Of a stretch of 20,000 nt of DNA, positions 1 to 17,610 are shown piece by piece. The DNA comes from an uncultured virus (IMG/VR IMGVR_UViG_3300020413_000007). Its lineage: Duplodnaviria; Heunggongvirae; Uroviricota; Caudoviricetes. The notes below the pieces were generated by a model that searched no databases, had not been told where the DNA came from, and was given only the letters and a program-made list of their open reading frames with translations. The position numbers and the translations under genes are program-made. How positions within the stretch are numbered: position 1 is the first letter of the stretch; every line of letters begins with the position of its first letter. The stretch lies in IMG/VR virus record IMGVR_UViG_3300020413_000007; one strand, written 5' to 3'.

Positions 1-2925
1 AAATTCCGTACATATGGTCTCGGAGATTCTGCTTCTGCAAATACTATATTGGTTCCTACAAAAGGAAATAGTGTTAAAACTATTACTGGTTCTGGTACAG
101 ACACAGTTACAAATGCTGCATATGTTCCGTCTACAGGAGTTCTAACATTAACCATTCCTCATCATGGATTATCAACAGGTGATAATATTAAACTTGCAGA
201 TGAATCATTAACATTTAGATGTTCGATGGATAATTATGCTACCGAACATAAGTATCCTAGAAATACTACAATTACACATACAGCTTCTAATGCATCTTAT
301 ATACCTTCTACAGGTACATTGACTATTACAACATCAAAACCTCACAATTTACAAACAGGTGACAGAATTAAAATTGGTGATAATTCATTAACATTTAAGT
401 GTGCTTTAGATAGTTATCAAACTACACATACATATCCAAGATCAACTGATCCATTTAGTGATAAATGGTTGCCTGTAAGTAATATTACAAACACAACATT
501 TACAGTAAATGTTGGTTCATCTACATTAACCACATACACACCAACTGCTGTCGATTATGAACCTAGTACAGGTGACATGACACTGAATATTGGTTCACAT
601 AATATTTCAATTGGTGATCCTATTAGAATTGCTGATGGATCTCTAACATTTACTTGTACATTAGATGGAAATATTGCTGAAAAATCTTATCCAAGAAGTA
701 ATGCTACATATCATTCAATAACAAATGCAGTTTATGATCCTACATCAGGTATTATGACTGTTACTCTTAACAATCATGGATTTATAAAAGGTGAATATGT
801 TAAGTTCTTAGTTAATTCATTACAATTTACATGTACAACTGATGGAAATACAATTCCAAAAACTTATCCTAGACCTACAGATCCAGCATATGATACATGG
901 TTAAAAATTGATAATATAACCACAAATACATTTACAGTCCAAGTTCTTGATACTGTACCTTCAACAAATACAGCAGCACATACTTTTGTTGGTGCAAGTG
1001 TAAATGGTTTGGCGAAGAAAGTTGATCAAGCATATCAAACTGCTCTTTCAGTAATTAAAAGAACTACTGATACTATTACTGTAAATGTTCTTGCTAAAAT
1101 TCCATCCACAAATCTTAGTGTTCATACATTTGTTAAAGCTGCAACTGGTGCTATAAGTTCTGGTGGTGGTTATTTACATAGATTTGTTTCTGCTGCTGCA
1201 GATAGTATAAGTGAAAAGAGAGATTTTGCATCAGAACAATTCCTACAATCAACTGTAGTTGACGAAGATACACTTACAGTTAATGTTGGTATAGTTCTTC
1301 CAAACACTCAGTATACACCAACAACAGGAACATCATATGATCCTGCTAGTGGATTATTAGTTTTAAATCTTGGTGCTGACTATAATGAATTGAAAGTTGG
1401 TAAGAGTGTTATTATTACCGACAATGCACTTAAATTTAAGTGTGCTATGGATAATAATGATTCTATTAAGTCTTATCCGAGACCAGGCTTAGATAAAGCA
1501 TCTGAAAGATCTCTTAAAATTACTGCAAAATCTGGTAATACTATAACCGTAGATGTTGGTGTTGCTGGTACAAACAAAACATTTACACCTAGCATGGCAC
1601 ATTATAATCAGATAACTGGTGATATGGTCATATTTATTGGACAACATGGATTGCGTAAAGATGCAAATGTAGTTTTAGTTAATAATTCACTTACATTCCA
1701 GTGTGCTAAAGATAATTATGTAAGCTTACATACTTATCCTCGTGCTGGTACAGATCCATATGCAAATGAAAAATCAATTGCAATTACAAACGTTGGATCT
1801 ACTGAACATACAGTAACTTCAGCATCATATGTTTCTTCAACTGGTATTGTAACAATTAGTGTTTTAGATCCTAGTAACAAATTTGCAAATGATGATTACA
1901 TCTTAGTTAACGATAATGCTCTTGTATTTACATGTAATTTAGATGGAAATGCAACACAACATCCATATCCTCGTGCTGGATATGATTTACCAAGTAATAA
2001 ATGGTTAAAGATTTCCAGTAAAACACATAACAGTGGTACAAGTACATTTAATATTAATGTTGGATCATCAACATATACTGGTACTCATACATTTGTAGGT
2101 GCTGCTGTTGATGCTTTACAGAGACAAAATGGTGAAATTACAATTAACGTTGGATTTGATTCTGACGCTGGTGATCAATATGAACATAGATTTGTTTCTG
2201 CAACTACAGGTGCAGTGAAGTATACACCAAATTCAACACATACATTCCAATCTGCTGATGCAAATTCAGTTAAGATGCTTGGTGATGCTACACATAAATT
2301 TGTAAGATCAACTACAAATGGTGTTTCAGTTGAAGCAAAAACCTTTGTATCAGTTGGTGATACAGTCATTGATTATGTTGGTCATAATCTCAGTAATACA
2401 ACATTAGTTCCAACTTATGAATCATATGTTGTAAGAGATGAACAGTTAAATTCTAGTGACGTTACATTTGGTACTAAATTATCATCTGGTATTAATACAT
2501 CAGTCGAAACTATTCCAGTTACAGGTACAGGAATGGCTTCCGAAAGTAATATTGGTATCACTATAACATCTGGAAGTGGATCTAGTGCAGTTCTGCAACC
2601 ATTTGTTGTTGATGGAAAAATCACTAAAGTAGTTGTAGAAACTGCTGGAAGTGGATATGATTCTAATGATATTGTATTGACTGTAACTAACGGAGGTGGG
2701 TCTGGTGCTGTACTGGAACCAGTTCTGAATGGATCGGGTGCATTTACTAGTGTGACTGTTACAAATGAGGGTATTGGGTACGATTCTTATAAGGCTTTCA
2801 TAAATAAGGAAGTTATAGAGTATACGAATCATACTACAACAAACCTAAAAGGTGTGACCAGAGGAATAGCGGGTAGTACTGCCGCAACTGGTGCTCAAAA
2901 TGATAAGGTCTATTTTGACTCGTAA
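1..2925 (+). CDS. Large baseplate wedge protein (gp7-like), 3' part; 5'-truncated by the window
   Basis: Frame 1 is open from base 1 (KFRTYGLGDSASANTILVPTK...), so the TTG at 49 is not the real start. Lies directly upstream of gp8, the gp7 position in T4-like cyanophages. Thr/Ser/Gly-rich beta-type sequence with seven YPR-containing repeats and a C-terminal E-x-I-x-Y...L-x-G-x-T-R-G-x-x-G-S-T-A module. Confidence 0.65.
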   Translation, partial: KFRTYGLGDSASANTILVPTKGNSVKTITGSGTDTVTNAAYVPSTGVLTLTIPHHGLSTGDNIKLADESLTFRCSMDNYATEHKYPRNTTITHTASNASYIPSTGTLTITTSKPHNLQTGDRIKIGDNSLTFKCALDSYQTTHTYPRSTDPFSDKWLPVSNITNTTFTVNVGSSTLTTYTPTAVDYEPSTGDMTLNIGSHNISIGDPIRIADGSLTFTCTLDGNIAEKSYPRSNATYHSITNAVYDPTSGIMTVTLNNHGFIKGEYVKFLVNSLQFTCTTDGNTIPKTYPRPTDPAYDTWLKIDNITTNTFTVQVLDTVPSTNTAAHTFVGASVNGLAKKVDQAYQTALSVIKRTTDTITVNVLAKIPSTNLSVHTFVKAATGAISSGGGYLHRFVSAAADSISEKRDFASEQFLQSTVVDEDTLTVNVGIVLPNTQYTPTTGTSYDPASGLLVLNLGADYNELKVGKSVIITDNALKFKCAMDNNDSIKSYPRPGLDKASERSLKITAKSGNTITVDVGVAGTNKTFTPSMAHYNQITGDMVIFIGQHGLRKDANVVLVNNSLTFQCAKDNYVSLHTYPRAGTDPYANEKSIAITNVGSTEHTVTSASYVSSTGIVTISVLDPSNKFANDDYILVNDNALVFTCNLDGNATQHPYPRAGYDLPSNKWLKISSKTHNSGTSTFNINVGSSTYTGTHTFVGAAVDALQRQNGEITINVGFDSDAGDQYEHRFVSATTGAVKYTPNSTHTFQSADANSVKMLGDATHKFVRSTTNGVSVEAKTFVSVGDTVIDYVGHNLSNTTLVPTYESYVVRDEQLNSSDVTFGTKLSSGINTSVETIPVTGTGMASESNIGITITSGSGSSAVLQPFVVDGKITKVVVETAGSGYDSNDIVLTVTNGGGSGAVLEPVLNGSGAFTSVTVTNEGIGYDSYKAFINKEVIEYTNHTTTNLKGVTRGIAGSTAATGAQNDKVYFDS
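106..2325 (+). repeat. Seven copies of a ~100-aa protein repeat (Y.P.TG.LT....H.L..GD.I.I.DNSLTF.C..D.....YPR..DP....L.I...T..T.TVNVG...H.FV.A), nested
   Basis: YPR motifs start at nt 253, 433, 688, 865, 1474, 1735, 1966. Closing H-x-F-[VQ] motifs start at nt 979, 1123, 1177, 2086, 2185, 2239, 2293. Confidence 0.9.
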
Positions 2926-2971: not shown

Positions 2972-4540
2972 ATGCCATCACTAGTTTCTGACAATTTCAG
3001 AGTATTTGCTGCAGAGCAGTTTATGGAGGCTCTTGAGGAACCTCTAGATTCTTCTGGCAACCCTCTTTCCGACTCTTCCACGGAGGCGTTGAGAGACAGA
3101 AGTAAAGTTTATATTTTTATTGGTCGTTCACAAACTTGGAATGCTGAGAGATACTCAGGTCTAGGTTTTAACGACATTGATACTATACCTTCACCAACGG
3201 ATTCATTTGATGAGTTGAGTGAAATTTATGACGATATGATCGCTATGAAGAGAATTACTCGTAGTGATGTCAATCAAGTTGTAAGAAAAAGAACTTGGAA
3301 GACAAATACTCGTTATGATATGTACAAACATAATTATTCTACTGGTTATCAGTCAGCGACTGGAGCTAATAAATTATATGATTCACAATTCTATGTGATG
3401 AATAGTAATTACGATGTTTATAAGTGTATCTATAATGGTGAAACTCCTGCTAATCCAAATGGAGTAATTTCTACTGTAGAACCAACAGGAACAGCAACTT
3501 CTATTTTTACTACATCTGATACTTACAGATGGAAGTATATGTATACATTAGGTATTAACGATTTTGTTAAGTTTGTTTCTAGTGATTTTATGCCACTTAA
3601 AACTGATTCTAACGTTGTTAGTGCTGCTACATCAGGAGCAATTGATCAACCTTTAGTAAGAAACGTTGGAAGTGGTTTAACTCCAGGCACATATTTCTGT
3701 CCAGTTATAGGTGATTATAGTACACTTGCAGTAGTTACATTTACAGTATCAAGCACTGCTCCGATTGCAAACCAAATTGATCCAAGCACAGTATCAATGT
3801 CTGTTGTTGGTGCTGGATATACTTATGGTACTATTAACCTTGCAGAATGTTATTCAACTTTAGCTGCTGCACAAGCAAGATCTGCTTCACCAACTGATCT
3901 TTCTACTGGTAGTGCTTCTATTGATGCTATAATCTCACCTCCAGATGGACATGGTTCTAATGTTGTGAGAGAACTTGGTGGTTACAGAGTAATGGTTAAT
4001 AAAGCTGTTGAGTTCTTGGATGGTGCTGGTGACGTACCAACTGATATGCAATTTAGAAGATTTGGTCTTGTTTCTGATCCACAAACTCCAGGCAACACTG
4101 ATTTAACATCAAGTACTGCTGCGGTATGTAAAGCAATTAAATTTCCTGCTGCATCATCTGTCAACTACACTATTGGTGAAGTAATTACTCAAGCAACTAC
4201 TGGTGCAAAAGGTAAGGTAATTCATTGGGATTCTGTTAACAAAGTTCTTAGATATTTCCAAAATGAATATACTGCTGCAACTCAATTAACTACTAATCAA
4301 TACAAGTTAGTAGAGTTTAGTGGTGCAAATGCGATTACTGGAGGATTATCTAGTACTGCATTAACTCCTGATACAGCTGCTAGTGGTACTACAACTGTTG
4401 CTGGTAGATCATTTACTACTGGTTACTCTAGTTCAGAGGTTAAAAAATTTAGTGGTTCTATTCTGTACATAGAGAACAGAAAAACAATCATTAGATCTGA
4501 TGACCAAATTGAAGACATTAAACTCGTTATTGAGTTCTGA
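2972..4540 (+). CDS. gp8: Baseplate wedge subunit gp8
   Basis: Characteristic gp8 motifs: N-terminal FRVFAAEQF, YIFIGRSQTW, YDDMIAMKRI, YDMYKHNYS, FYVMNSNYDVYKCIYN, EPTG..YRWKYMYT, SPPDGHG, FRRFGLVSDP, C-terminal SGSILYIENRKTIIRSDDQIEDIKLVIEF. Confidence 0.95.
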   Translation: MPSLVSDNFRVFAAEQFMEALEEPLDSSGNPLSDSSTEALRDRSKVYIFIGRSQTWNAERYSGLGFNDIDTIPSPTDSFDELSEIYDDMIAMKRITRSDVNQVVRKRTWKTNTRYDMYKHNYSTGYQSATGANKLYDSQFYVMNSNYDVYKCIYNGETPANPNGVISTVEPTGTATSIFTTSDTYRWKYMYTLGINDFVKFVSSDFMPLKTDSNVVSAATSGAIDQPLVRNVGSGLTPGTYFCPVIGDYSTLAVVTFTVSSTAPIANQIDPSTVSMSVVGAGYTYGTINLAECYSTLAAAQARSASPTDLSTGSASIDAIISPPDGHGSNVVRELGGYRVMVNKAVEFLDGAGDVPTDMQFRRFGLVSDPQTPGNTDLTSSTAAVCKAIKFPAASSVNYTIGEVITQATTGAKGKVIHWDSVNKVLRYFQNEYTAATQLTTNQYKLVEFSGANAITGGLSSTALTPDTAASGTTTVAGRSFTTGYSSSEVKKFSGSILYIENRKTIIRSDDQIEDIKLVIEF

Positions 4541-4576: not shown

Positions 4577-7500
4577 ATGCAAAAGACCAATCTACAACTG
4601 GCGCCATACTTTGATGATTTTGATAGTTCCAAAAACTATCAAAAGATTCTATTTAAACCTGGCTATCCAGTGCAGGCGAGAGAACTTACTCAACTGCAAA
4701 CACAGTTACAGAACCAAATAGAGAAATTTGGAAATCATACATTTAAAGATGGTTCTGTAGTAATACCAGGCCAGATTGGTTACGATCTGCAATATGATGC
4801 TGTTTTAGTTCAGAATTTAATTGGTGGTGTAGAAGTAGAAGCAACAAGAACAAGTTTAGTAGGTAAAACTTTAAAAGGATCAACTACTGGTGTAGAGGCA
4901 GAAGTTGTAAATACAATATCAGTTACAACAAGTGAAAAAAATGCGATTACATTATATGTAAAATATACAAAGAGTGGTTCTAGTACAGCTGGTATCCAAT
5001 CAACTAAATTTGGTAATAATGAGACTTTAATTGATACATCAACTAATCTTAATGTTGCTCAAACATATCTTTTAAATGCTACTGAATATACTGGAAGTAT
5101 AGCATACATTACAAATGGCATCTACTATATTCGTGGATTTTTTGTAGAAGTTATAGATCAAAATATTATACTTAATCAATATAGTAACAAACCAACATAT
5201 AAGATTGGTCTAACAGTTACAGAAGAAAAAATAACAAGTGATGAAGATAGTACATTATTCGATAATGCAAATGGATATTCTAATTTTGCTGCTCCAGGCG
5301 CTGATAGATTAAAAATTACTGCATCATTATCAAAAGAGTTGACTAGTTTTTCTGATAATGGTAATTTTATAGAATTATTAAGATTAAAAGATGGTATTTT
5401 AGAAAGAATTGTTGAGACTAGTTTATACAGTGAATTAGAAAAAAATCTTGCTAGAAGAACATATGATGAATCTGGTGATTATACAGTCAGAGATTTTACT
5501 GTTAAGGTAAAAGAAGCTCTTGATAATGGAGATAATGGTGGTATCTATAATCCTAATGAAGTTCTTGCAGATGGTAGAAGTATTTTAGCAAGAGATCCAT
5601 TAGAAACAGATCCAACAAATTCTTTTAATGGTAATAATTATTATGCTTTAGAAGTATCTTCTGGAAAAGCATATGTAAGAGGTTTTGAGATTGATAATGT
5701 TGCTAAAAAATATGTATTAGCTGAAAAAACAAGAGTAACATCTGCTTCAAATAATAAAACTACAAATACAAGTTTTGGATCATATTTTACAATATCTTCT
5801 GCCGTACAAACTGTTACTGCTGGTCAGACTCTTTCTTTAAGAAATAGTAGTAATGCTGTTATTGGTAATGCTCGTGCTGTAGGTGTAGTTCCTGCTAGTA
5901 CTGGTCATTTATTATATGTTGAGGAAGCATTTACATTTACAGATGTTGTAGTTACAGGTGATGCTACTGCATTACAATCTGGTGATTTTATATTTTCTTC
6001 TAGAGGATCTAGAGGTGTAGTTGTATCTACAACTCTTTCTAGTGGTAATACAACACTTAGATTACGTCAAGTTGTTGGTAGATTTGTAAATAATGATGTT
6101 ATAAACAATAGTAGAGATTCAATTACGTTTACAATTTCTAGTCTTACTGATTTTAAATTTACAGATGTTAATAATATAATCAATGGTCTTGGATATGTTG
6201 CAACTGTAACTTCAAATACTGGTCTTAAAACAAAAGGTAAAAATAGTTTTATTAAAATATCAGATTTACCAGTAGCAACAATTAGTGATTATTCATACAC
6301 AAAATTAGCAAGAGTAACTCTTACTGTTCAAAGTGGAGCAGTATCAATTACTGCACCAAATAATTTTACTCCTTTAACAACTGGATACTATATCACTTCA
6401 GCTACTGGAGATCATACAGCAACTGCAACTCTTACTGGAAATACTTTAGTATTATCGTCTATTAGTGGAAATCCTACTAATGGAACTAGTGTAACAATTT
6501 GGTATAAATTAAGAGTTAATAATGTTTCTGTTAGAACTAAGAAAAATAAAACATTCCAATACTTATCAGTCACAAAGAAAAAATCATCAACTGATGTAGT
6601 CTATGGTAATAGGTATGATGATAAAGAAATTAATTTAAGATTTCCAGACGTTTATAAAATACATGCTATTCATGAGGCAGCTGTAAATGGTGTAACTGAT
6701 ACAAATATGTTTGATCGTTTAATTATAAATGATTCAAGTGAGGTTGAAACTGGTGATATTATTCAAAGTGGTTCTTTAAGAGCAAAAATTATATTTAAGA
6801 ATGGTGTAAATCTTCATGTAAAATATTTACAGAATCAAAAATTTACACAAGGAACAAATTTAACTACACAAATTACTATTGTCAATAATCCTACTTTAGT
6901 CGGAAGATTTTTAACTGAAGTTACACATGGTAACTATATCGATATTACAGATAATTATGCTTTAGTTAAAAATGATGTAGAAGATAATTATAGAATTTCT
7001 AAATTATCTAGATTAGGTAATAGATCAACACCATCACAAAAAATTACTATTGTATTTGATTATTTTGAACATGGAAATACTACAAATGATTTTTATGCTA
7101 CAAGTTCATTTAATACTGATGATGATGGAGATATAGAATATACAAATATTCCATATGCATATGATGGAACTCCTTATACTGATATCTTAGATTTCAGAGG
7201 AACCTATACACCAACAACTGCTTCTGGTAGTGGTACTGTAACTGCCCCATATGTTACTAGTAATGGAAAATCAGCATTTGATATTTACGAACAAACCAAG
7301 AGTGCTGCTATAACAGCATATCCAGATGAGTTTGCTACATATGATTTAAGTTACTATACTGCAAGAATTGATAGATTATATCTTAATAAAGAAGGTAAGT
7401 TTGTAATATCACAAGGATCACCAGCAATCAATCCAGTAATACCTGAGTCTGTTTCAGATTCTTTATTAATCAATACTATTTCTATACCAGCATATCTTAG

Positions 7501-10500
7501 AGATGTAAATCAAATTTCTATACAGAAAGAAGATACTAGAAGATATACTATGAAAGATATTGGTGCTATTGAATCTAGAGTGGATAGTATTGAATACTAT
7601 ACAACTTTAAGTTTACTTGAAACTGATACTAACAATATGATGATTCTTGATAGTAGTGGAAATAATAGATTTAAAAATGGATTCTTAGTTGATAACTTTA
7701 AATCTCTTAATTTTACAGAATCTAAAAATCCAGATTTCAATATGTCCATTGATACCACACAAGGTTTGATGAGACCATATCCATATGTTAATAACATAGG
7801 TTTCAAGTGGCTTGAAACTATGGATGGTACTGCAACAAAAGTAGGTGGGTTACAAAAGACTGGTGATTTCTTATCTTTACCATATAAAGAAGAACAATTT
7901 GCTTCTAATCCATATGCAAGTAAGGTAGTTAATTTAAATCCATTTAATGTGTTTACATGGGTAGGAGATTTTAAAATATCACCAGAAAGAGATGTATGGT
8001 TTGATACAAAAAGATCTGCTCCTGAGAATGTACCTCAAGTAGATCTTACAGGACCTATTAAATTCCTTTATGATAGGAGTGGTGCTGATGGTGAGAAATG
8101 GGGTAGTTGGAATAATACTGGTAGTGAAAGAGTAAGTGGTGGTACTGAATTTACTGATAAAAGAACTGGTGTAGAAAACAGTTTTAGTACTGTCACACAG
8201 AATATTGAAGTTGGTGATAGAATTGATGGTATTAAAAATATTGAGTTTGCTAGATCAATTGTAATTGATGCAAAGTCATCAAGAATGAAACCAAATACAA
8301 ATTTATATTTCTTTATTGATGGTGAAGATTATAATGATAGTGTATATCCTAAAATCTTTAGAAATATTACTAGAACTGTAAATAGTACTTCTTTTGTAGT
8401 TGGTGAGAAAGTTAGAATTGAATCACAATCTGATCCAGGCACTAATCAAATTATTGCAGAAGTAGTTGTTGCATCTAAATATGATTCTACTATAACTGCT
8501 AATTATAGTGGTGCATCTACTGTAATCGCAATTGATAATGTAACCACTGTAGATGGTACATTATTAAATCCATCAAGTCCTACAGACAAAGTTAAAATAA
8601 CAGGACTTACAACTGGTGCTGTTGCAGAAGTGGACTTAACTTCTCCTAGAATTTCTACTAACGATGAAGGAACTGTAGACTTCTTTATTTTAGTTCCTCC
8701 AGAAAAATTAGAAACTGGTAAGTCAAGATTAGTAATAACAGATGAAAGCACATCTACAACTGTAGAAGGTGTATCTGATACTAATGCAGTTGCTAATTAT
8801 GATTCAGAAGGAACTTTATTTGAACTAACAAGTTTAAGTATAGATATGCAGATTCCTCAAATTACTGTAACACCTATTGAGGAAACAAGACAAAGATTTA
8901 TACCTGATCCTCCTCCACCTCCACCTAGAAACTGTGACCCATTAGCACAATCATTCTTTGTTGATGCTATTGAAGGTGGAATGTTTATTACATCTATAGA
9001 TTTATATTTCCAATCTAAGGATACAAAAGTTCCTGTAACAATTGATATTCGTACTGTAGAAAATGGATCACCAACACAGACAATTCTTCCATTTAGTGTA
9101 AAAACAATTGAAGCTGCTAATGTATCTGTAAATGCAACTAAAGCAAATACAGTAACTAAGTTTACATTTGATGCTCCAGTATATGTAGCAAATGGTCAAG
9201 AATACGCATTTATTTTAAGATCTAGATCTTTAAATTATAAAGTTTGGGTATCTAGATTAAATCAAGTTGATGTAGATACTAGTCAATTAATTGACAAACA
9301 ACCATATGCAGGGTCATTATACAAATCTCAAAACATGAGTGTCTGGGAACCAGATCAGTTTGAAGATATCAAGTTCAATATTAATAGAGCTAAGTTTACA
9401 ACCAATAGTAAATTAACTGCTCAATTAACAAATGGTATTGTTCCTAGAGTAGATCTTCCAACAGATCCATTGATTTTTACATCTGATTCAACTGATATTA
9501 CTATATTACATCCAAATCATTGTATGCATACAAAACAAAATTTTGTAAATATATCTGGTGTAAAATCAGATGTACCAAATACTAAACTGGTAACTCCATT
9601 AGGAAATGCACAGTTTATAGTTGATACAGCTATTACATTAGCAGATGGTACATTCACACCCACCCAGTTTAATAATACAACAGTAGGAGATAATAATTTT
9701 GGATACATCAAAATTAATGATGAAATTATTGCTTACAAATCAGTAAGTGGTTCTACAATTACAGTTCCTAGTGGTGGTAGAGGTGTTGGTGATACAGTTA
9801 TTGTTTCACATGCTACAAATTCTGTAGTTGAATACTATAGTATTAATGGTATACCTTTAACAGAAATTAATAAAGTACATTCATTAAAAGATGTAATTAG
9901 TATGGATAAATATCAAATTTCTGTTAATTCAAAAGCAAATGAAACAAAACAATCAGGTGCTAGATACATTAAGGCAAGTAGAAACTTACAGTTTGAAAGT
10001 ATTACACCTAGATTAAATGAAATTATATTTTCTGGTACAGAATTAACTACAAGATTAGGTACAACTTCTGGTTCTTCAGTAAGTGAAAAGAATACAGGAA
10101 CTTTCTCAACATTACAAGATGTAAGTCTTGCTAATTTAGAAGTGAATGAATTGGATGCATCCAGTGTTATTCTTTCACCAGAAAACCAAACAGTATACTT
10201 TGGTTCTACTGATTCATTTAAATTTTATGCTGATATGAAGAGTACAGTTGATAACTTAAGTCCGATGTTTAATCTTTCTGGATCATCTGTTATTACTGCA
10301 ATGAATCGTATCAATAGAATTGATAAAACAGATGGAACTGTAGATCTTACTTCTGAACTTAATTCAGAGGGATCATTACATGATTCTGTTTATGTAACTA
10401 AAAAAGTAACTCTAGAAAACTCTTCTACTTCTATCAAAATTTTATTTGATGCAATTAGAAGACAGGGTGTTGATATTAAAGTATTTGCTAAAGTGAAAAG

Positions 10501-10720
10501 AGATGATGAGACAGATGATTTCAACTTATTAGATTACGTTGAAATACCTTCTACAAATTATCCATTCTCACCAGACAAAGAAACATATCGGGCATTTGAA
10601 TATGAAATTACTGGTTTAGTAGGTTTCAAAGAATATGCTATTAAGGTTGTTATGATTGGTAACGATCAATCTAATGTGCCTAAAATAAGAAACTTTAGAG
10701 GAATTGCCCTCGCAGTATAA
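4577..10720 (+). CDS. Large virion structural protein, VrlC-like / DUF4815-type (baseplate or tail associated)
   Basis: 2047 aa. Recognisable motifs: N-terminal PYFDDFDSSKNYQKILFKPGYPVQARELTQLQ, APGADRLKI, LARRTYDESGDY, GKAYVRGFEI, RRYTMKDIG, RFKNGFLVDNF, NPFNVFTWVG, DPLAQSFFV, C-terminal PKIRNFRGIALA. Occupies the usual post-gp8 position in cyanomyoviruses. Confidence 0.85.
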   Translation: MQKTNLQLAPYFDDFDSSKNYQKILFKPGYPVQARELTQLQTQLQNQIEKFGNHTFKDGSVVIPGQIGYDLQYDAVLVQNLIGGVEVEATRTSLVGKTLKGSTTGVEAEVVNTISVTTSEKNAITLYVKYTKSGSSTAGIQSTKFGNNETLIDTSTNLNVAQTYLLNATEYTGSIAYITNGIYYIRGFFVEVIDQNIILNQYSNKPTYKIGLTVTEEKITSDEDSTLFDNANGYSNFAAPGADRLKITASLSKELTSFSDNGNFIELLRLKDGILERIVETSLYSELEKNLARRTYDESGDYTVRDFTVKVKEALDNGDNGGIYNPNEVLADGRSILARDPLETDPTNSFNGNNYYALEVSSGKAYVRGFEIDNVAKKYVLAEKTRVTSASNNKTTNTSFGSYFTISSAVQTVTAGQTLSLRNSSNAVIGNARAVGVVPASTGHLLYVEEAFTFTDVVVTGDATALQSGDFIFSSRGSRGVVVSTTLSSGNTTLRLRQVVGRFVNNDVINNSRDSITFTISSLTDFKFTDVNNIINGLGYVATVTSNTGLKTKGKNSFIKISDLPVATISDYSYTKLARVTLTVQSGAVSITAPNNFTPLTTGYYITSATGDHTATATLTGNTLVLSSISGNPTNGTSVTIWYKLRVNNVSVRTKKNKTFQYLSVTKKKSSTDVVYGNRYDDKEINLRFPDVYKIHAIHEAAVNGVTDTNMFDRLIINDSSEVETGDIIQSGSLRAKIIFKNGVNLHVKYLQNQKFTQGTNLTTQITIVNNPTLVGRFLTEVTHGNYIDITDNYALVKNDVEDNYRISKLSRLGNRSTPSQKITIVFDYFEHGNTTNDFYATSSFNTDDDGDIEYTNIPYAYDGTPYTDILDFRGTYTPTTASGSGTVTAPYVTSNGKSAFDIYEQTKSAAITAYPDEFATYDLSYYTARIDRLYLNKEGKFVISQGSPAINPVIPESVSDSLLINTISIPAYLRDVNQISIQKEDTRRYTMKDIGAIESRVDSIEYYTTLSLLETDTNNMMILDSSGNNRFKNGFLVDNFKSLNFTESKNPDFNMSIDTTQGLMRPYPYVNNIGFKWLETMDGTATKVGGLQKTGDFLSLPYKEEQFASNPYASKVVNLNPFNVFTWVGDFKISPERDVWFDTKRSAPENVPQVDLTGPIKFLYDRSGADGEKWGSWNNTGSERVSGGTEFTDKRTGVENSFSTVTQNIEVGDRIDGIKNIEFARSIVIDAKSSRMKPNTNLYFFIDGEDYNDSVYPKIFRNITRTVNSTSFVVGEKVRIESQSDPGTNQIIAEVVVASKYDSTITANYSGASTVIAIDNVTTVDGTLLNPSSPTDKVKITGLTTGAVAEVDLTSPRISTNDEGTVDFFILVPPEKLETGKSRLVITDESTSTTVEGVSDTNAVANYDSEGTLFELTSLSIDMQIPQITVTPIEETRQRFIPDPPPPPPRNCDPLAQSFFVDAIEGGMFITSIDLYFQSKDTKVPVTIDIRTVENGSPTQTILPFSVKTIEAANVSVNATKANTVTKFTFDAPVYVANGQEYAFILRSRSLNYKVWVSRLNQVDVDTSQLIDKQPYAGSLYKSQNMSVWEPDQFEDIKFNINRAKFTTNSKLTAQLTNGIVPRVDLPTDPLIFTSDSTDITILHPNHCMHTKQNFVNISGVKSDVPNTKLVTPLGNAQFIVDTAITLADGTFTPTQFNNTTVGDNNFGYIKINDEIIAYKSVSGSTITVPSGGRGVGDTVIVSHATNSVVEYYSINGIPLTEINKVHSLKDVISMDKYQISVNSKANETKQSGARYIKASRNLQFESITPRLNEIIFSGTELTTRLGTTSGSSVSEKNTGTFSTLQDVSLANLEVNELDASSVILSPENQTVYFGSTDSFKFYADMKSTVDNLSPMFNLSGSSVITAMNRINRIDKTDGTVDLTSELNSEGSLHDSVYVTKKVTLENSSTSIKILFDAIRRQGVDIKVFAKVKRDDETDDFNLLDYVEIPSTNYPFSPDKETYRAFEYEITGLVGFKEYAIKVVMIGNDQSNVPKIRNFRGIALAV

Positions 10721-14713: not shown

Positions 14714-16546
14714 ATGGCTAAAAACGTATACTTTACTATAGGTACGAAGTCTGAACAAAGACTTTATGAAGACTTGATCATCGAGTCTATGAAAATTTAT
14801 GGTCTTGACGTATATTATCTACCTAGAGAAATGGTAACAACCGATAGGTTGTTTAGAGAAGATACTCTTTCTAAATTTGATGAGAACTATCTCATAGAAA
14901 TGTATCTTACAAACTATGATGGATTTGAAGGTGATGGAACATTACTAACAAAATTTGGTGTAAGAATATCAGAAGAAGCAACATTTATTGTATCAAGACG
15001 TAGATGGGAAGATTTGATACAAGCAAAATCAAACAATCTTGTTTCTGCTGAAAGACCAAATGAAGGAGATGCAATATATTTCCCATTAACAAAACAGTTA
15101 TTCCAAATTAAATTTGTAGAGAATGAAACACCTCTAAGACCTCTTGGAGATGTACCTACATTTACACTCGTTACTGAACTCATGGAGTTTGCTGATGAGA
15201 GACTTGAAACTGGTCTTGCTGAAATTGATAAAATTGCTGCAGAAGCAGCATACTCTATTGTTCATAAAGTCACTAGTGGTATCAAGTACATTTACATTAC
15301 TTCTGCTGGAACTGGATATGGTTCTGGTACAACAGTTACATTTAATACTTTAGCTGGTGCTGTTCCTCCAACATCTATTGTTCCTACAGTTACAAATGGA
15401 TCTATAGCATCAATTGCAATATCAAATCCTGGCAGTGGATATACAACAACTGCTCCAACAGTAACTATTGGTGGCACTGGAACTGGTGCTACAGCACAAG
15501 CAATTCTATCTGCTGGAGGTAATTTTACATTCGGTGAATTTGTATATGGTACAAAGTTTACCGCAGATGTAATTGCATCTAATCCAAATGCTACTTACAA
15601 TTTAACAAACGTATTTACGATTCGTAAAGTAGGAAGTGGATATACTACTGCTCCTCTAGTTACTATAGGAAAACCTGATGCTGTAACTGCAACAGCTACT
15701 ACCTCTTTGTTATCTGGTGCAGTTGATACTATAGCTTTAACATCTGGTGGACAAGGATATCCCGATAACTTAACCAATGTTCCTACTAGTGGTGGTACTG
15801 GTACAGGATTAAAAGTAAATACTACAGCTGTTAATGGAGTTATTACTAGTGTAACAATTCATACTAGTGGTAATGGATATACAGTTGGTGATACCATTAA
15901 TATAGTTCCAAATGGGTTTGGTGGAACTCAAGCAGTAATTACATTATCTACTGTATCTAGTCGTGTATCTTCAGTTGTAATGACTAGTGGTGGTAGTGGA
16001 TACACATCTACACCTACAGTTACATTATCTGCTCCAGAAACATCTGGAGGAACTACAGCTACAGCTACAGCAAATATGAGTGGTGGTGCTGTTGCCTCGA
16101 TTACGGTAACAAATGCTGGTACTGGATATACATCTTCACCCACAGTTACCATTGCTGAACCAACTAAAGTACAAGCACTTGCACAAGCAACAGTAACAAA
16201 TGGAACTATTTCTGCTGTAACTTTAACTACTGCTGGTAATGGTTATGTAAGTAAACCTAGAATCATTATTGCTCCATCTCCTAGTGAACCAAAAGGTAAG
16301 GTTGCAAGATGGGATGTGACAAACAAAGAATTAGAACTTATAGATATAGTAGGAACATTCTCTGATGATGATACTTTGATTGGTGTTGAATCACAATCTG
16401 AAACTGTCATAGATAGTTTCAGTAGTATAGAAAATGAGAACGCATCTAATTCTGAAAACGATTGGTTTGAAACTGAAGGTGATAATTTAATCGATTGGTC
16501 GGAAGGTAATCCATTTGGTGAATTTGGTAATTCTGGAGTATTCTAA
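14714..16546 (+). CDS. gp14: Neck protein gp14 with large repeat insertions
   Basis: N-terminal EQRLYEDLIIESMKIYGLDVYYLPRE, IEMY...DGFEG....LTKFG, RPNEGDAIYFP...LFQIKFVE; C-terminal DWSEGNPFG. At 610 aa it is over twice the size of T4 gp14, owing to eight G-x-G-Y repeats. Confidence 0.93.
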   Translation: MAKNVYFTIGTKSEQRLYEDLIIESMKIYGLDVYYLPREMVTTDRLFREDTLSKFDENYLIEMYLTNYDGFEGDGTLLTKFGVRISEEATFIVSRRRWEDLIQAKSNNLVSAERPNEGDAIYFPLTKQLFQIKFVENETPLRPLGDVPTFTLVTELMEFADERLETGLAEIDKIAAEAAYSIVHKVTSGIKYIYITSAGTGYGSGTTVTFNTLAGAVPPTSIVPTVTNGSIASIAISNPGSGYTTTAPTVTIGGTGTGATAQAILSAGGNFTFGEFVYGTKFTADVIASNPNATYNLTNVFTIRKVGSGYTTAPLVTIGKPDAVTATATTSLLSGAVDTIALTSGGQGYPDNLTNVPTSGGTGTGLKVNTTAVNGVITSVTIHTSGNGYTVGDTINIVPNGFGGTQAVITLSTVSSRVSSVVMTSGGSGYTSTPTVTLSAPETSGGTTATATANMSGGAVASITVTNAGTGYTSSPTVTIAEPTKVQALAQATVTNGTISAVTLTTAGNGYVSKPRIIIAPSPSEPKGKVARWDVTNKELELIDIVGTFSDDDTLIGVESQSETVIDSFSSIENENASNSENDWFETEGDNLIDWSEGNPFGEFGNSGVF

Positions 16547-17610
16547 TGTTAGGAAAACATTTTTATCACGAAATTCTTAGAAAGACTATTATTGGTTTTG
16601 GAACTATATTTAATAATATAGAATTACAAAGAACTGATAATGCTGGGAATGTCGTACAAACAACTAAAGTTCCTTTGAACTATGGCCCAAGAGAAAAGTT
16701 TCTTGCAAGAATAGAGGCGGAACCTTCATTGGATGGTCGTGCTGAAACACAAATTACATTACCTAGAATTTCATTTGAAATGAAAGGTATTAATTATGAT
16801 CCATCTAGAAAGTTAGGCCCCGTACAAATACAAAGATCACAAAAAACTAGTGATACAGAAAAGAGTTACTCTACATACAGTCCTGTACCATATAACTGTG
16901 AATTTGAATTAAACATTTTAAGTAAAAATAACGAAGACTCTGTACAAATATTAGAACAGATTTTACCTTATTTTCAACCGATGTTTAATATTACAATTAA
17001 TTTAATAACATCAATTAGTGAAAAGAAAGATATACCTATAATTTTAAACAATGTTGGAATCTACGATGACTATGAATCAGATATGAGTACAAGAAGAACC
17101 TTGATTCATACTCTTAATTTTACAGCAAAGACATATATGTACGGACCTGTATCTACTGCTGAAATGATTAGGAAGGTTAATGTTGATATTAGTGCTGCAA
17201 TGACAACTGGATCTAGACACGTTAGATACAGTACAGAACCAGCTGCTAAAGTTGATCAGAACAGAGATGGTACATCAATTCCACCTACACAGTTTAATGT
17301 TTCTAGTAATACTATTACATTATCAAGTCATGGATTTGTTACTCAGGATAAGGTTACATACAATCAAGACACATCTGGTACACCTGTTGGTGGATTAACT
17401 GATAAGAATAATTACTATATAATTAAAATTGACAATGATAACTTTAGAGTTGCAAAATCAAAATCTTATGCTAGACAAGGATTTGCAATTGACATTACTG
17501 CACAACCTACAGGTAATGATCATAAGTTCTCTGTAATCAATACATTAGATGATGCATTTATGGATGCAGGCGATGACTTTGGATTCAATGAAAGCTGGAC
17601 TAATTTCTAA
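16546..17610 (+). CDS. gp15: Tail sheath stabiliser / tail terminator gp15
   Basis: MLGKHFYHEILRKTIIGFGTIFNNI, VPLNYGPREKFLAR, TLPRISFE, PVPYN..FEL.I......QILEQILPYFQP, DIPIIL, FTAKTYMYGP, C-terminal DDFGFNE. TAATG overlap with gp14. Confidence 0.96.
   Translation: MLGKHFYHEILRKTIIGFGTIFNNIELQRTDNAGNVVQTTKVPLNYGPREKFLARIEAEPSLDGRAETQITLPRISFEMKGINYDPSRKLGPVQIQRSQKTSDTEKSYSTYSPVPYNCEFELNILSKNNEDSVQILEQILPYFQPMFNITINLITSISEKKDIPIILNNVGIYDDYESDMSTRRTLIHTLNFTAKTYMYGPVSTAEMIRKVNVDISAAMTTGSRHVRYSTEPAAKVDQNRDGTSIPPTQFNVSSNTITLSSHGFVTQDKVTYNQDTSGTPVGGLTDKNNYYIIKIDNDNFRVAKSKSYARQGFAIDITAQPTGNDHKFSVINTLDDAFMDAGDDFGFNESWTNF

Follow-up and report, generated by a model that had tools for sequence, protein, structure and literature searches.

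Seven predicted beta-barrels nested within one another in a giant virion protein of an uncultured T4-like cyanomyovirus

Introduction

Which pieces of a repetitive protein belong together when its repeats do not simply follow one another? The question is raised by the first 2,925 nucleotides (nt) of a 20,000-nt stretch of DNA from an uncultured virus (IMG/VR record IMGVR_UViG_3300020413_000007), the whole of which is called the window here. Positions 1–2925 form a single plus-strand reading frame, open at its 5′ end, that holds the last 974 amino acids (aa), with the stop codon, of a giant open reading frame (ORF). The frame contains pieces of a ~100-residue repeat with three ordered parts, A, B and C. 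An initial annotation proposed that seven copies, R1 to R7, are inserted recursively into each other's loops, so that openings and closings balance like parentheses and the protein forms a branched tree.

This proposal was examined by profile searches, a grammar of piece order, residue couplings and structure prediction. The results indicate that aa 35–775 very probably form a tree of seven homologous ~100-residue beta-barrels, nested within one another. The nested reading is supported for R2 to R7, by models and couplings; that R1 is a real domain, the root carrying both arms of the tree, is probable on sequence evidence.

Results

Pieces of seven repeats occur in a balanced order

The motifs that open and close the repeats were found where they had been placed by the initial annotation. 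All seven Y-P-R openings are present, at nt 253, 433, 688, 865, 1474, 1735 and 1966, as are all seven closing H-x-F motifs, at nt 979, 1123, 1177, 2086, 2185, 2239 and 2293. There is one more H-x-F, an eighth (HGF, nt 775), which falls within part A of R4 and closes no repeat.

Profiles were derived from relatives of the window protein. A search with the cluster region identified, among 1,200 scored candidates, 382 giant proteins (2,627–8,360 aa) at an expectation value (E) ≤0.001, and 120 of the 382 were used. In these, a seed profile of R4 and R7 found 1,810 stretches, 352 of which (346 unique) span the whole ~99-column domain. Sub-profiles for A (columns 1–58), B (columns 57–84, plus its two halves) and C (columns 84–99) were made from contiguous copies in other giant proteins. 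On the window protein they returned seven A pieces (E ≤1e-19), seven C pieces (E ≤5e-4), six whole B pieces (E ≤3e-6) and two half-B pieces, each weak alone (E 0.05–0.16). The order of the pieces was A1 A2 B2 A3 A4 B4 C4 B3 C3 C2 B1 A5 B5 A6 B6′ A7 B7 C7 B6″ C6 C5 C1, identical to that given in the initial annotation.

Under a grammar in which A opens a domain, B continues it and C closes it, with guests permitted in the three gaps, an error-tolerant dynamic-programming parse resolves this order as R1[R2[R3[R4]] R5[R6[R7]]] at an edit cost of 0. Such balance is rare by chance: valid nestings make up 7,752 of the 399,072,960 orders of seven A, seven B and seven C pieces (1.9e-5), and 40 of 2,000,000 simulated shuffles were valid. 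The predicted topology places the arm R2[R3[R4]] between A1 and B1, and the arm R5[R6[R7]] between B1 and C1.

All pieces lie on the plus strand. The A part of R1 (aa 35–89, window 103–267, E 2e-29) is followed, right after its YPR, by the first arm. Parts A and B of R2 (aa 92–175, window 274–525; A, E 5e-26; B, E 4e-16) come next, and R3 enters after B. The A part of R3 (aa 177–234, window 529–702, E 4e-27) is in turn interrupted after its YPR by R4, which is contiguous from A to C (aa 236–336, window 706–1008). The arm is then closed in reverse order, by parts B and C of R3 (aa 344–385, window 1030–1155; B, E 8e-8; C, E 2e-6) and by part C of R2 (aa 392–403, window 1174–1209, E 6e-5). Part B of R1 (aa 408–431, window 1222–1293, E 3e-6) stands between the two arms. 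The second arm opens with parts A and B of R5 (aa 436–521, window 1306–1563; A, E 1e-19; B, E 2e-9), after which R6 enters. R6 contributes part A and the first half of B (aa 527–598, window 1579–1794; A, E 1e-23; half-B, E 0.05–0.1) before R7, again contiguous (aa 601–705, window 1801–2115, E 7e-31 with the whole-domain profile), enters within B. The second half of B and part C of R6 follow (aa 713–739, window 2137–2217; half-B, E 0.05–0.16; C, E 2e-6), with profile columns 72–99 matching aa 709–739. Part C of R5 (aa 745–757, window 2233–2271, E 4e-7) and part C of R1 (aa 764–775, window 2290–2325, E 5e-4) close the second arm and the whole tree, respectively. All 12 junctions between host and guest are 1–7 residues long.

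Two of the seven units, R4 and R7, are therefore contiguous by profile search, as had been claimed, and the array is not a tandem of beads on a string. Each of the other five is split by a guest, either one complete copy or a complete nested stack, that occupies one of three loops. These loops, to judge from the sequences, are located after the YPR motif, inside the B part, and after the '...VNVG' strand; the three sites were already named in the initial annotation and are all used across the family. The same annotation had anticipated that a linear hidden Markov model would see fragments, and this is what the whole-domain profile alone returned for five of the seven domains. It matched A alone at aa 34–89 and 177–234, A plus B at aa 92–178 and 437–525, B plus C at aa 340–385, and whole domains solely at aa 237–336 and 601–705. 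At the level of the profile, R3 is thus interrupted by R4, and R6 by R7, with a complete copy of the family lying inside a domain of the same family.

Reconstituted domains score like contiguous ones

When the guests were excised and the pieces of each domain joined in silico, as the initial annotation had suggested, the seven domains scored 88–129 bits against a whole-domain profile built from other proteins with close relatives excluded. These scores are on par with those of the contiguous R4 (129 bits) and R7 (99 bits). Pairwise identities among the seven domains are 29–47%, and no pair of parent and child stands out, which suggests that the tree is old and did not arise by a recent burst of self-duplication. 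Likewise, these identities gave no sign of a recent duplication of a domain into its own loop.

Across 29 contiguous copies, the following are invariant: a Tyr, a Gly, one Cys (in part A), the Y-P-R, an Asp and the closing His (in part C). The invariant Cys and His (window 706–1008 and 1801–2115) might touch each other or bind a metal, and in this way pin the closing strand onto part A.

Separated pieces prefer the partners assigned by nesting

Because a profile does not show which B and C go with a given A, a mean-field coupling model was used. The model was trained on contiguous copies only, and training sequences ≥60% identical to a test item were removed. It was asked whether an A piece prefers the B and C pieces assigned to it by nesting over the others in the same protein. 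In the control, contiguous domains under five-fold cross-validation, the true partner had a mean rank fraction of 0.16–0.20 (chance 0.5) and came first in 360 of 703 cases. Split domains paired by nesting behaved similarly, with a mean rank fraction of 0.22 and the true partner first in 143 of 341. After removal of row and column effects, the cognate A was the best in 244 of the 341 split domains, and nested pairing beat swapped pairing in 372 of 379 pairs of a parent and its first child. The preference was seen with the guest between A and B (cognate best in 39 of 61, 7.5 expected by chance) and with the guest between B and C (78 of 243, 30.7 expected). The separated pieces are thus specifically compatible in the way that nesting predicts.

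For the window itself, with close relatives kept out of training, the centred diagonal terms of all seven domains were positive, and the nested assignment ranked second of the 5,040 permutations.

A bracket grammar holds across the family

The piece order of 121 proteins was compared with shuffled orders, after contiguous ABC units had been collapsed to single tokens; each protein was shuffled five times. The real orders required 673 edits in total to reach a valid nesting, compared with a mean of 1,440 for the shuffled ones, and the real order was cheaper than all five shuffles in 113 of the 121 proteins. A strict parse, in which everything after any violation is discarded, closed 1,176 domains in 270 proteins. 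Of these, 825 are contiguous and 351 are split, with subtree heights of up to 7. Among the split domains, 214 have the guest after B, 57 have it within B and 47 after A, while 33 have guests in two loops. Nesting depth had been proposed as a comparison among relatives, and other depths were indeed found: the longest run of consecutive closing pieces is 7, seen in 4 of the 270 proteins, and 147 have a run of at least 3. In two relatives (L011 and L012), a chain of six levels closes last-in-first-out, as a stack predicts, and both half-B pieces return at exactly the stack positions left open by the first halves.

Junctions that precede an A piece occur after B (634), after C (557), after A (306), after a first half-B (171) and after a second half-B (98). 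The initial annotation proposed growth by insertion rather than in tandem; the family probably grows in both ways.

These data bear on one alternative, that the repeats are ordinary tandem or circularly permuted ones in which each orphan B or C piece folds with what lies beside it in the sequence, the bracket order having no structural meaning. Every A part begins with a strand (H/Y-T-x-T-x-A-x-Y) that is similar to the closing strand of C (H-T-F-V-x-A), and the C profile gives a weak match (E 0.27) on the start of A4 (window 697–738, aa 233–246). The likeness may point to pseudo-symmetry within the barrel, its two ends lying next to each other, and by sequence alone it makes a permuted reading conceivable. 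Against it stand the grammar statistics and the preference for nested over swapped pairing given above. In addition, where three or four C pieces follow one another bare, no A or B lies next to them as a folding partner, and the structural matches described below span the discontinuous limits. We consider tandem or permuted folding very improbable.

The barrel family comprises 750 cluster representatives at E ≤0.001. No Pfam or NCBIfam model covers it, and the nearest ESM Atlas clusters are unnamed; among named clusters, a viral FCCH-domain one is nearest (score 0.89), and is taken as no more than a lead. Two further lines of evidence were set aside. A four-domain nested chain in a relative (L014) was considered as a natural excision of the first arm, 308 window residues (about one arm) being unmatched in a pairwise alignment, but the orthology of the pieces is ambiguous and no claim is made. 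Blocks of insertions and deletions in multiple alignments were dropped, being too scrambled by misalignment of the repeats.

Predicted structures match the discontinuous domain limits

Each AlphaFold2 model was searched against 48,161 solved chains, and the counts given here refer to the 50 matches listed for it. The first arm, R2[R3[R4]], was modelled on its own (aa 90–405, 316 aa) from an alignment of 11 rows. Six of these are distant versions at 37–45% identity (P0002, P0014, P0034, P0025, P0031 and P0051), almost gapless, and four are closer rows at 71–82% identity; every closing His is invariant, that of R2 part C in 11 of 11 arms. All three levels of the arm are conserved together as a module. 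The model had a mean predicted local distance difference test score (pLDDT) of 91.0 and a predicted template modelling score (pTM) of 0.80, with no residue below pLDDT 50 and parts B and C of R3 above 82. Sixteen of the 50 matches covered R4 (model residues 145–150 to 251–254) and eight ran from 85–88 to 299–300, the limits of R3. An FCCH barrel matched the limits of R2, model residues 1 to 316, with 76 of 79 residues aligned at a root-mean-square deviation of 2.5 Å.

The linker between C3 and C2 (aa 386–392, window 1156–1176) carries a conserved S/T-G-G-x-Y directly before the closing His. Its Gly-Gly is invariant in all 11 versions of the arm, including those at 37–45% identity.

The whole region (aa 20–780), modelled from a 19-row alignment, reached a pLDDT of 73 and a pTM of 0.38. 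Here the matches covered R4 (model residues 215–217 to 321–323, 15 of 50), R7 (578–582 to 689–693, 16 of 50), the outer limits of R6 (503–505 to 724, 6 of 50, 66–86 residues aligned) and the outer limits of R5 (415–417 to 741–750, 5 of 50, 71–84 residues aligned). The initial annotation had proposed that discontinuous segments would superimpose on one domain, and for R2, R3, R5 and R6 this is what the matches indicate: between 66 and 86 residues are aligned of the 210–326 spanned, and the aligned ranges coincide with the domain limits predicted from sequence. A compact target of 80–100 residues that fits ~76 ordered residues spread over 316 implies that those residues form one compact unit. 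At least two levels of nesting are borne out in this way, with the ranges of R2, R3 and R4 matched in the arm model and those of R5, R6 and R7 in the whole-region model. There is good support from these models that R2 to R7 are each one FCCH-like beta-barrel of ~80–100 residues, with the small closed fold of the FCCH domain.

Several points weigh against a nested tree of clean barrels. The discontinuity was read from the first and last aligned residues and the aligned length. B1 and C1 have a pLDDT of 25–61 in the whole-region model, and no listed match spans R1. The top-scoring assignment of the window's pieces by couplings swaps R3 and R6, and couplings may reflect shared ancestry as well as physical contact; by either route, shared descent or contact, the separated pieces would be halves of one domain. 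Over its whole length none of the 121 proteins parsed at cost 0, and only four at a cost ≤1. These errors are attributed mainly to missed short C and half-B pieces, since inspection shows such pieces to be missed, with real exceptions possible. The function of the array is wholly inferred. Lastly, 6 of 50 matches to the arm model (e.g. 145 to 277–278) and 8 of 50 to the whole-region model (e.g. 530–533 to 690–692) fitted no single domain, so that some sharing of strands between host and guest is possible.

This last point raises the alternative that the domains are nested in sequence and interdigitated in space, host and guest barrels swapping strands so that seven clean barrels do not result. 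Four of the listed arm-model matches span 145–150 to 277–278, that is R4 plus B3, and four of the whole-region matches cover part of A6 with R7 (530–533 to 690–692). Long strands assigned by DSSP run through the R6/R7 junctions (model residues 574–584 and 687–697), and strand exchange has been reported for some of the recursively inserted domains of Si3 in RNA polymerase. On the other hand, the domain limits are clean in 44 of 50 arm-model and 42 of 50 whole-region matches, the FCCH barrel fits the R2 limits closely, and the reconstituted domains score like contiguous ones. Interdigitation is thus unlikely, though less so than tandem folding, and separate barrels nested in sequence are the preferred reading.

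R1 is probably the root of both arms

The branched tree of the initial annotation is borne out by models and couplings for R2 to R7; for R1 it depends on sequence. As the putative host of two guests, R1 is backed by piece order, profile score and couplings; no confident model supports it. In the whole-region model, confidence is low at model residues 337–399, 403–414 and 743–761, which correspond to B3, C3, C2, B1 and C1. As B3, C3 and C2 were poor in that model and good with a deeper alignment, the low confidence may stem from too shallow an alignment, and its failure on R1 is uninformative. When A1, B1 and C1 were predicted as a complex of three chains, the scores were 0.41, 0.37 and 0.42, with controls at 0.25 (chain 3 replaced) and 0.00–0.01 (partner replaced); this result was used neither for nor against R1.

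It could be argued from the low pLDDT of B1 and C1, the lack of a listed structural match across R1, and the standing of B1 and C1 as the weakest whole pieces (E 3e-6 and 5e-4) that only the arms are nested. A1, B1 and C1 would then be decayed remnants or linkers, and two independent arms would have no branching root. A1, however, is among the strongest A pieces (E 2e-29) and has no other B or C left as a partner. Reconstituted R1 scored 110.6 bits, and its coupling term is the maximum of its own row and column, with A1-C1 the best pair in both directions. Two-guest hosts are also not peculiar to the window: 33 were counted in 24 other proteins, and in 10 of the 33 the guests sit after A and after B, as in R1. 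The junctions around the R1 pieces, at 2–6 residues, are like all others. A rootless pair of arms is accordingly improbable, somewhat more so than interdigitated barrels, and R1 as a branching root remains the better reading.

The nested cluster lies near the C-terminus of a giant protein at the gp7 position of a T4-like phage

The ORF listed in the initial annotation is open at the 5′ end of the window. In a near-identical record (G001; 8 mismatches over the first 3,000 nt) the full ORF has 4,777 aa, with the nested cluster at aa 3,838–4,578. Its N-terminal ~216 aa match phrog_2885, 'baseplate wedge subunit' (E 4e-65), as well as other PHROG families of that name. The next gene (window 2972–4540, plus strand) encodes a gp8-like baseplate wedge protein (PF09215, E 2e-16; phrog_438, E 2e-152), and with this gp8 homologue directly downstream the giant ORF is at the position of gp7. 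Further downstream lie a 2,047-aa DUF4815 protein, a gp13-like head-tail adaptor, a gp14-like T4 neck protein, a gp15 tail-sheath stabiliser and a small terminase subunit (gp16 homologue). The description 'gp7-like' therefore stands as regards gene position and PHROG match; similarity to T4 gp7 itself is not part of its basis.

When aa 20–780 were searched by tblastn, 315 phage records were matched, named (by first word) Synechococcus in 262 cases, Cyanophage in 25, Prochlorococcus in 20 and Marine in 8. Syn1, S-RIM44, ACG-2014j and S-SSM4 are among the phages matched. The matched genes are named tail fibre, structural protein or baseplate wedge subunit. On the strength of these names, the neighbouring genes and the N-terminal PHROG match, the source is, by its sequence, an uncultured T4-like cyanomyovirus with the ORF at the gp7 position. 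A megablast search of phage sequences gave a sole match of 49 nt. Nothing significant emerged when solved structures were searched by sequence with the 974-aa protein, with the first 500 aa of the giant ORF or with the 29-row domain profile; the best match was a carbonic anhydrase repeat at E 0.005. With phmmer, neither of these two ends of the giant protein had a relevant match among all solved chains.

The C-terminal ~200 aa after the cluster (aa 776–974, window 2326–2922, plus strand) are a different region, with no A, B or C piece below E 0.3 and no Pfam match. They contain Gly/Ser-rich 'GSGY'-type stretches resembling those near the N-terminus of the full ORF; relatives L009–L013 carry a different C-terminal region after their clusters. 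Elsewhere in the giant protein, outside the window, further copies of the barrel occur at aa 928–1026 and 2713–2911 of the full ORF in G001 (nt 3108–3404 and ~8463–9059 of L006), as one contiguous barrel and one nested pair (A and B, a whole copy, and the closing C). A YHYH domain (PF14240, E 2e-29) lies mid-ORF at aa ~1612–1718 (L006 nt ~5160–5480), and LamG-type domains appear in many relatives in precomputed Pfam annotation.

The DUF4815 protein is itself a second very large ORF (window 4577–10720; PF16075, E 1e-50; phrog_358, a family of unknown function). Both the gp14-like neck protein (610 aa, window 14714–16546) and the gp15-like sheath stabiliser (354 aa, window 16546–17610) have C-terminal extensions that match PHROG families of giant baseplate proteins (phrog_701, 5342, 2885 and others). 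From these matches, decoration domains seem to be common to neck, tail and baseplate proteins.

Discussion

Comparison with known systems

The architecture has a precedent: recursive insertion within one family is a published principle and is not new with the phage barrels. The Si3 insertion of the cyanobacterial RNA polymerase beta′ subunit (rpoC2) consists of recursively inserted HABAS/SBHM hybrid-motif domains. Eight domains are described in it, nested recursively over six levels with bifurcating nodes, and of 48,551 insertion events it is presented as the most extreme (PMC13114784). Si3 and the phage array are alike in that copies of one small beta domain family sit inside copies of the same family over several levels, with hosts that carry more than one guest. 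Their fold matches differ: the phage barrels are closest to barrels of the FCCH, FAD-binding and EF-Tu-domain-2 types, and among the 50 matches listed for either model there was no chain of RNA polymerase beta′ (HABAS/SBHM fold). They also differ in that the host here is a phage virion protein and not the trigger loop of an enzyme, three insertion loops are used, instances of variable depth number in the hundreds (351 split domains within 270 proteins), and the function is probably structural rather than regulatory. What is new is a barrel family without a name or model, its context in virion proteins, the three insertion loops, and the number and variety of instances.

Likeness to the FCCH domain is in fold. 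The E1_FCCH model (PF16190) gave 16 bits (E 0.013), which does not reach its gathering cut-off of 29.5, and the YPR loop, like the invariant Cys and the closing His, is particular to the cyanophage family. FCCH-type barrels are described as outward-facing domains of siphophage tail tube proteins (PMC13576161); the known phage tail examples are single terminal domains, in contrast to the nested ones here. The beta-barrel of the phi92 endosialidase (PDB 4hiz) differs in being a single barrel in a different host protein, where it is presumably itself an inserted domain.

With T4 gp7 the giant protein has in common its gene order, directly upstream of a gp8 homologue with gp13, gp14, gp15 and gp16 homologues downstream, and a protein of Synechococcus phage S-SSM7 named 'Baseplate wedge initiator' carries the same barrels. 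T4 gp7 has ~1,030 aa, which makes the giant protein ~4.6 times longer, and nested barrels are not a known feature of it. A full-text literature search, with subscription-only papers and supplements outside its reach, found no paper on nested domains in cyanophage structural proteins.

A proposed rigid, branched module at the baseplate periphery

In the proposed architecture, each guest is joined to its host by two linkers of 1–7 residues, so that neighbouring barrels are tied by two chain crossings and not one. We infer that such two-stranded links are stiffer, from the short linkers and the pTM of one arm; the value of 0.80 over three domains fits a fixed geometry. The array would be a structural module of the baseplate periphery in a T4-like cyanomyovirus, rigid and branched, and act as a strut or display scaffold. 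Folding would proceed from the inside out, with R1 closing only ~740 residues after its first strand is made. The family would grow and shrink by whole balanced copies or stacks in the three permissive loops, as well as in tandem.

Biological significance

For annotation, the immediate consequence is that standard linear profiles see fragments only for five of the seven domains. The family is found in 315 cyanophage records, and a nested-aware model would account for long, so far unannotated tracts of the largest genes in abundant ocean viruses. After Si3, the phage barrels represent a second, independent and far more populous case of recursive insertion within one family. With hundreds of natural variants of depth and insertion site, the folding and evolution of discontinuous domains become directly testable, and for protein design the array offers a natural template for stiff, branched, single-chain scaffolds.

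More broadly, and tentatively, since we hold it to be somewhat short of probable, no natural system of recursive self-insertion may be larger than that of the giant virion proteins in marine T4-like cyanophages. Their rigid branched trees, reaching at least seven levels, would be built by a bracket-like (context-free) grammar from a single ~100-residue barrel that has three permissive loops; they would serve as baseplate struts or display scaffolds and fold strictly from the inside out. If this is true, the doubly tethered links would give mechanical and proteolytic resistance, and the diversity of host contacts in these phages would evolve by the insertion and deletion of whole balanced modules.

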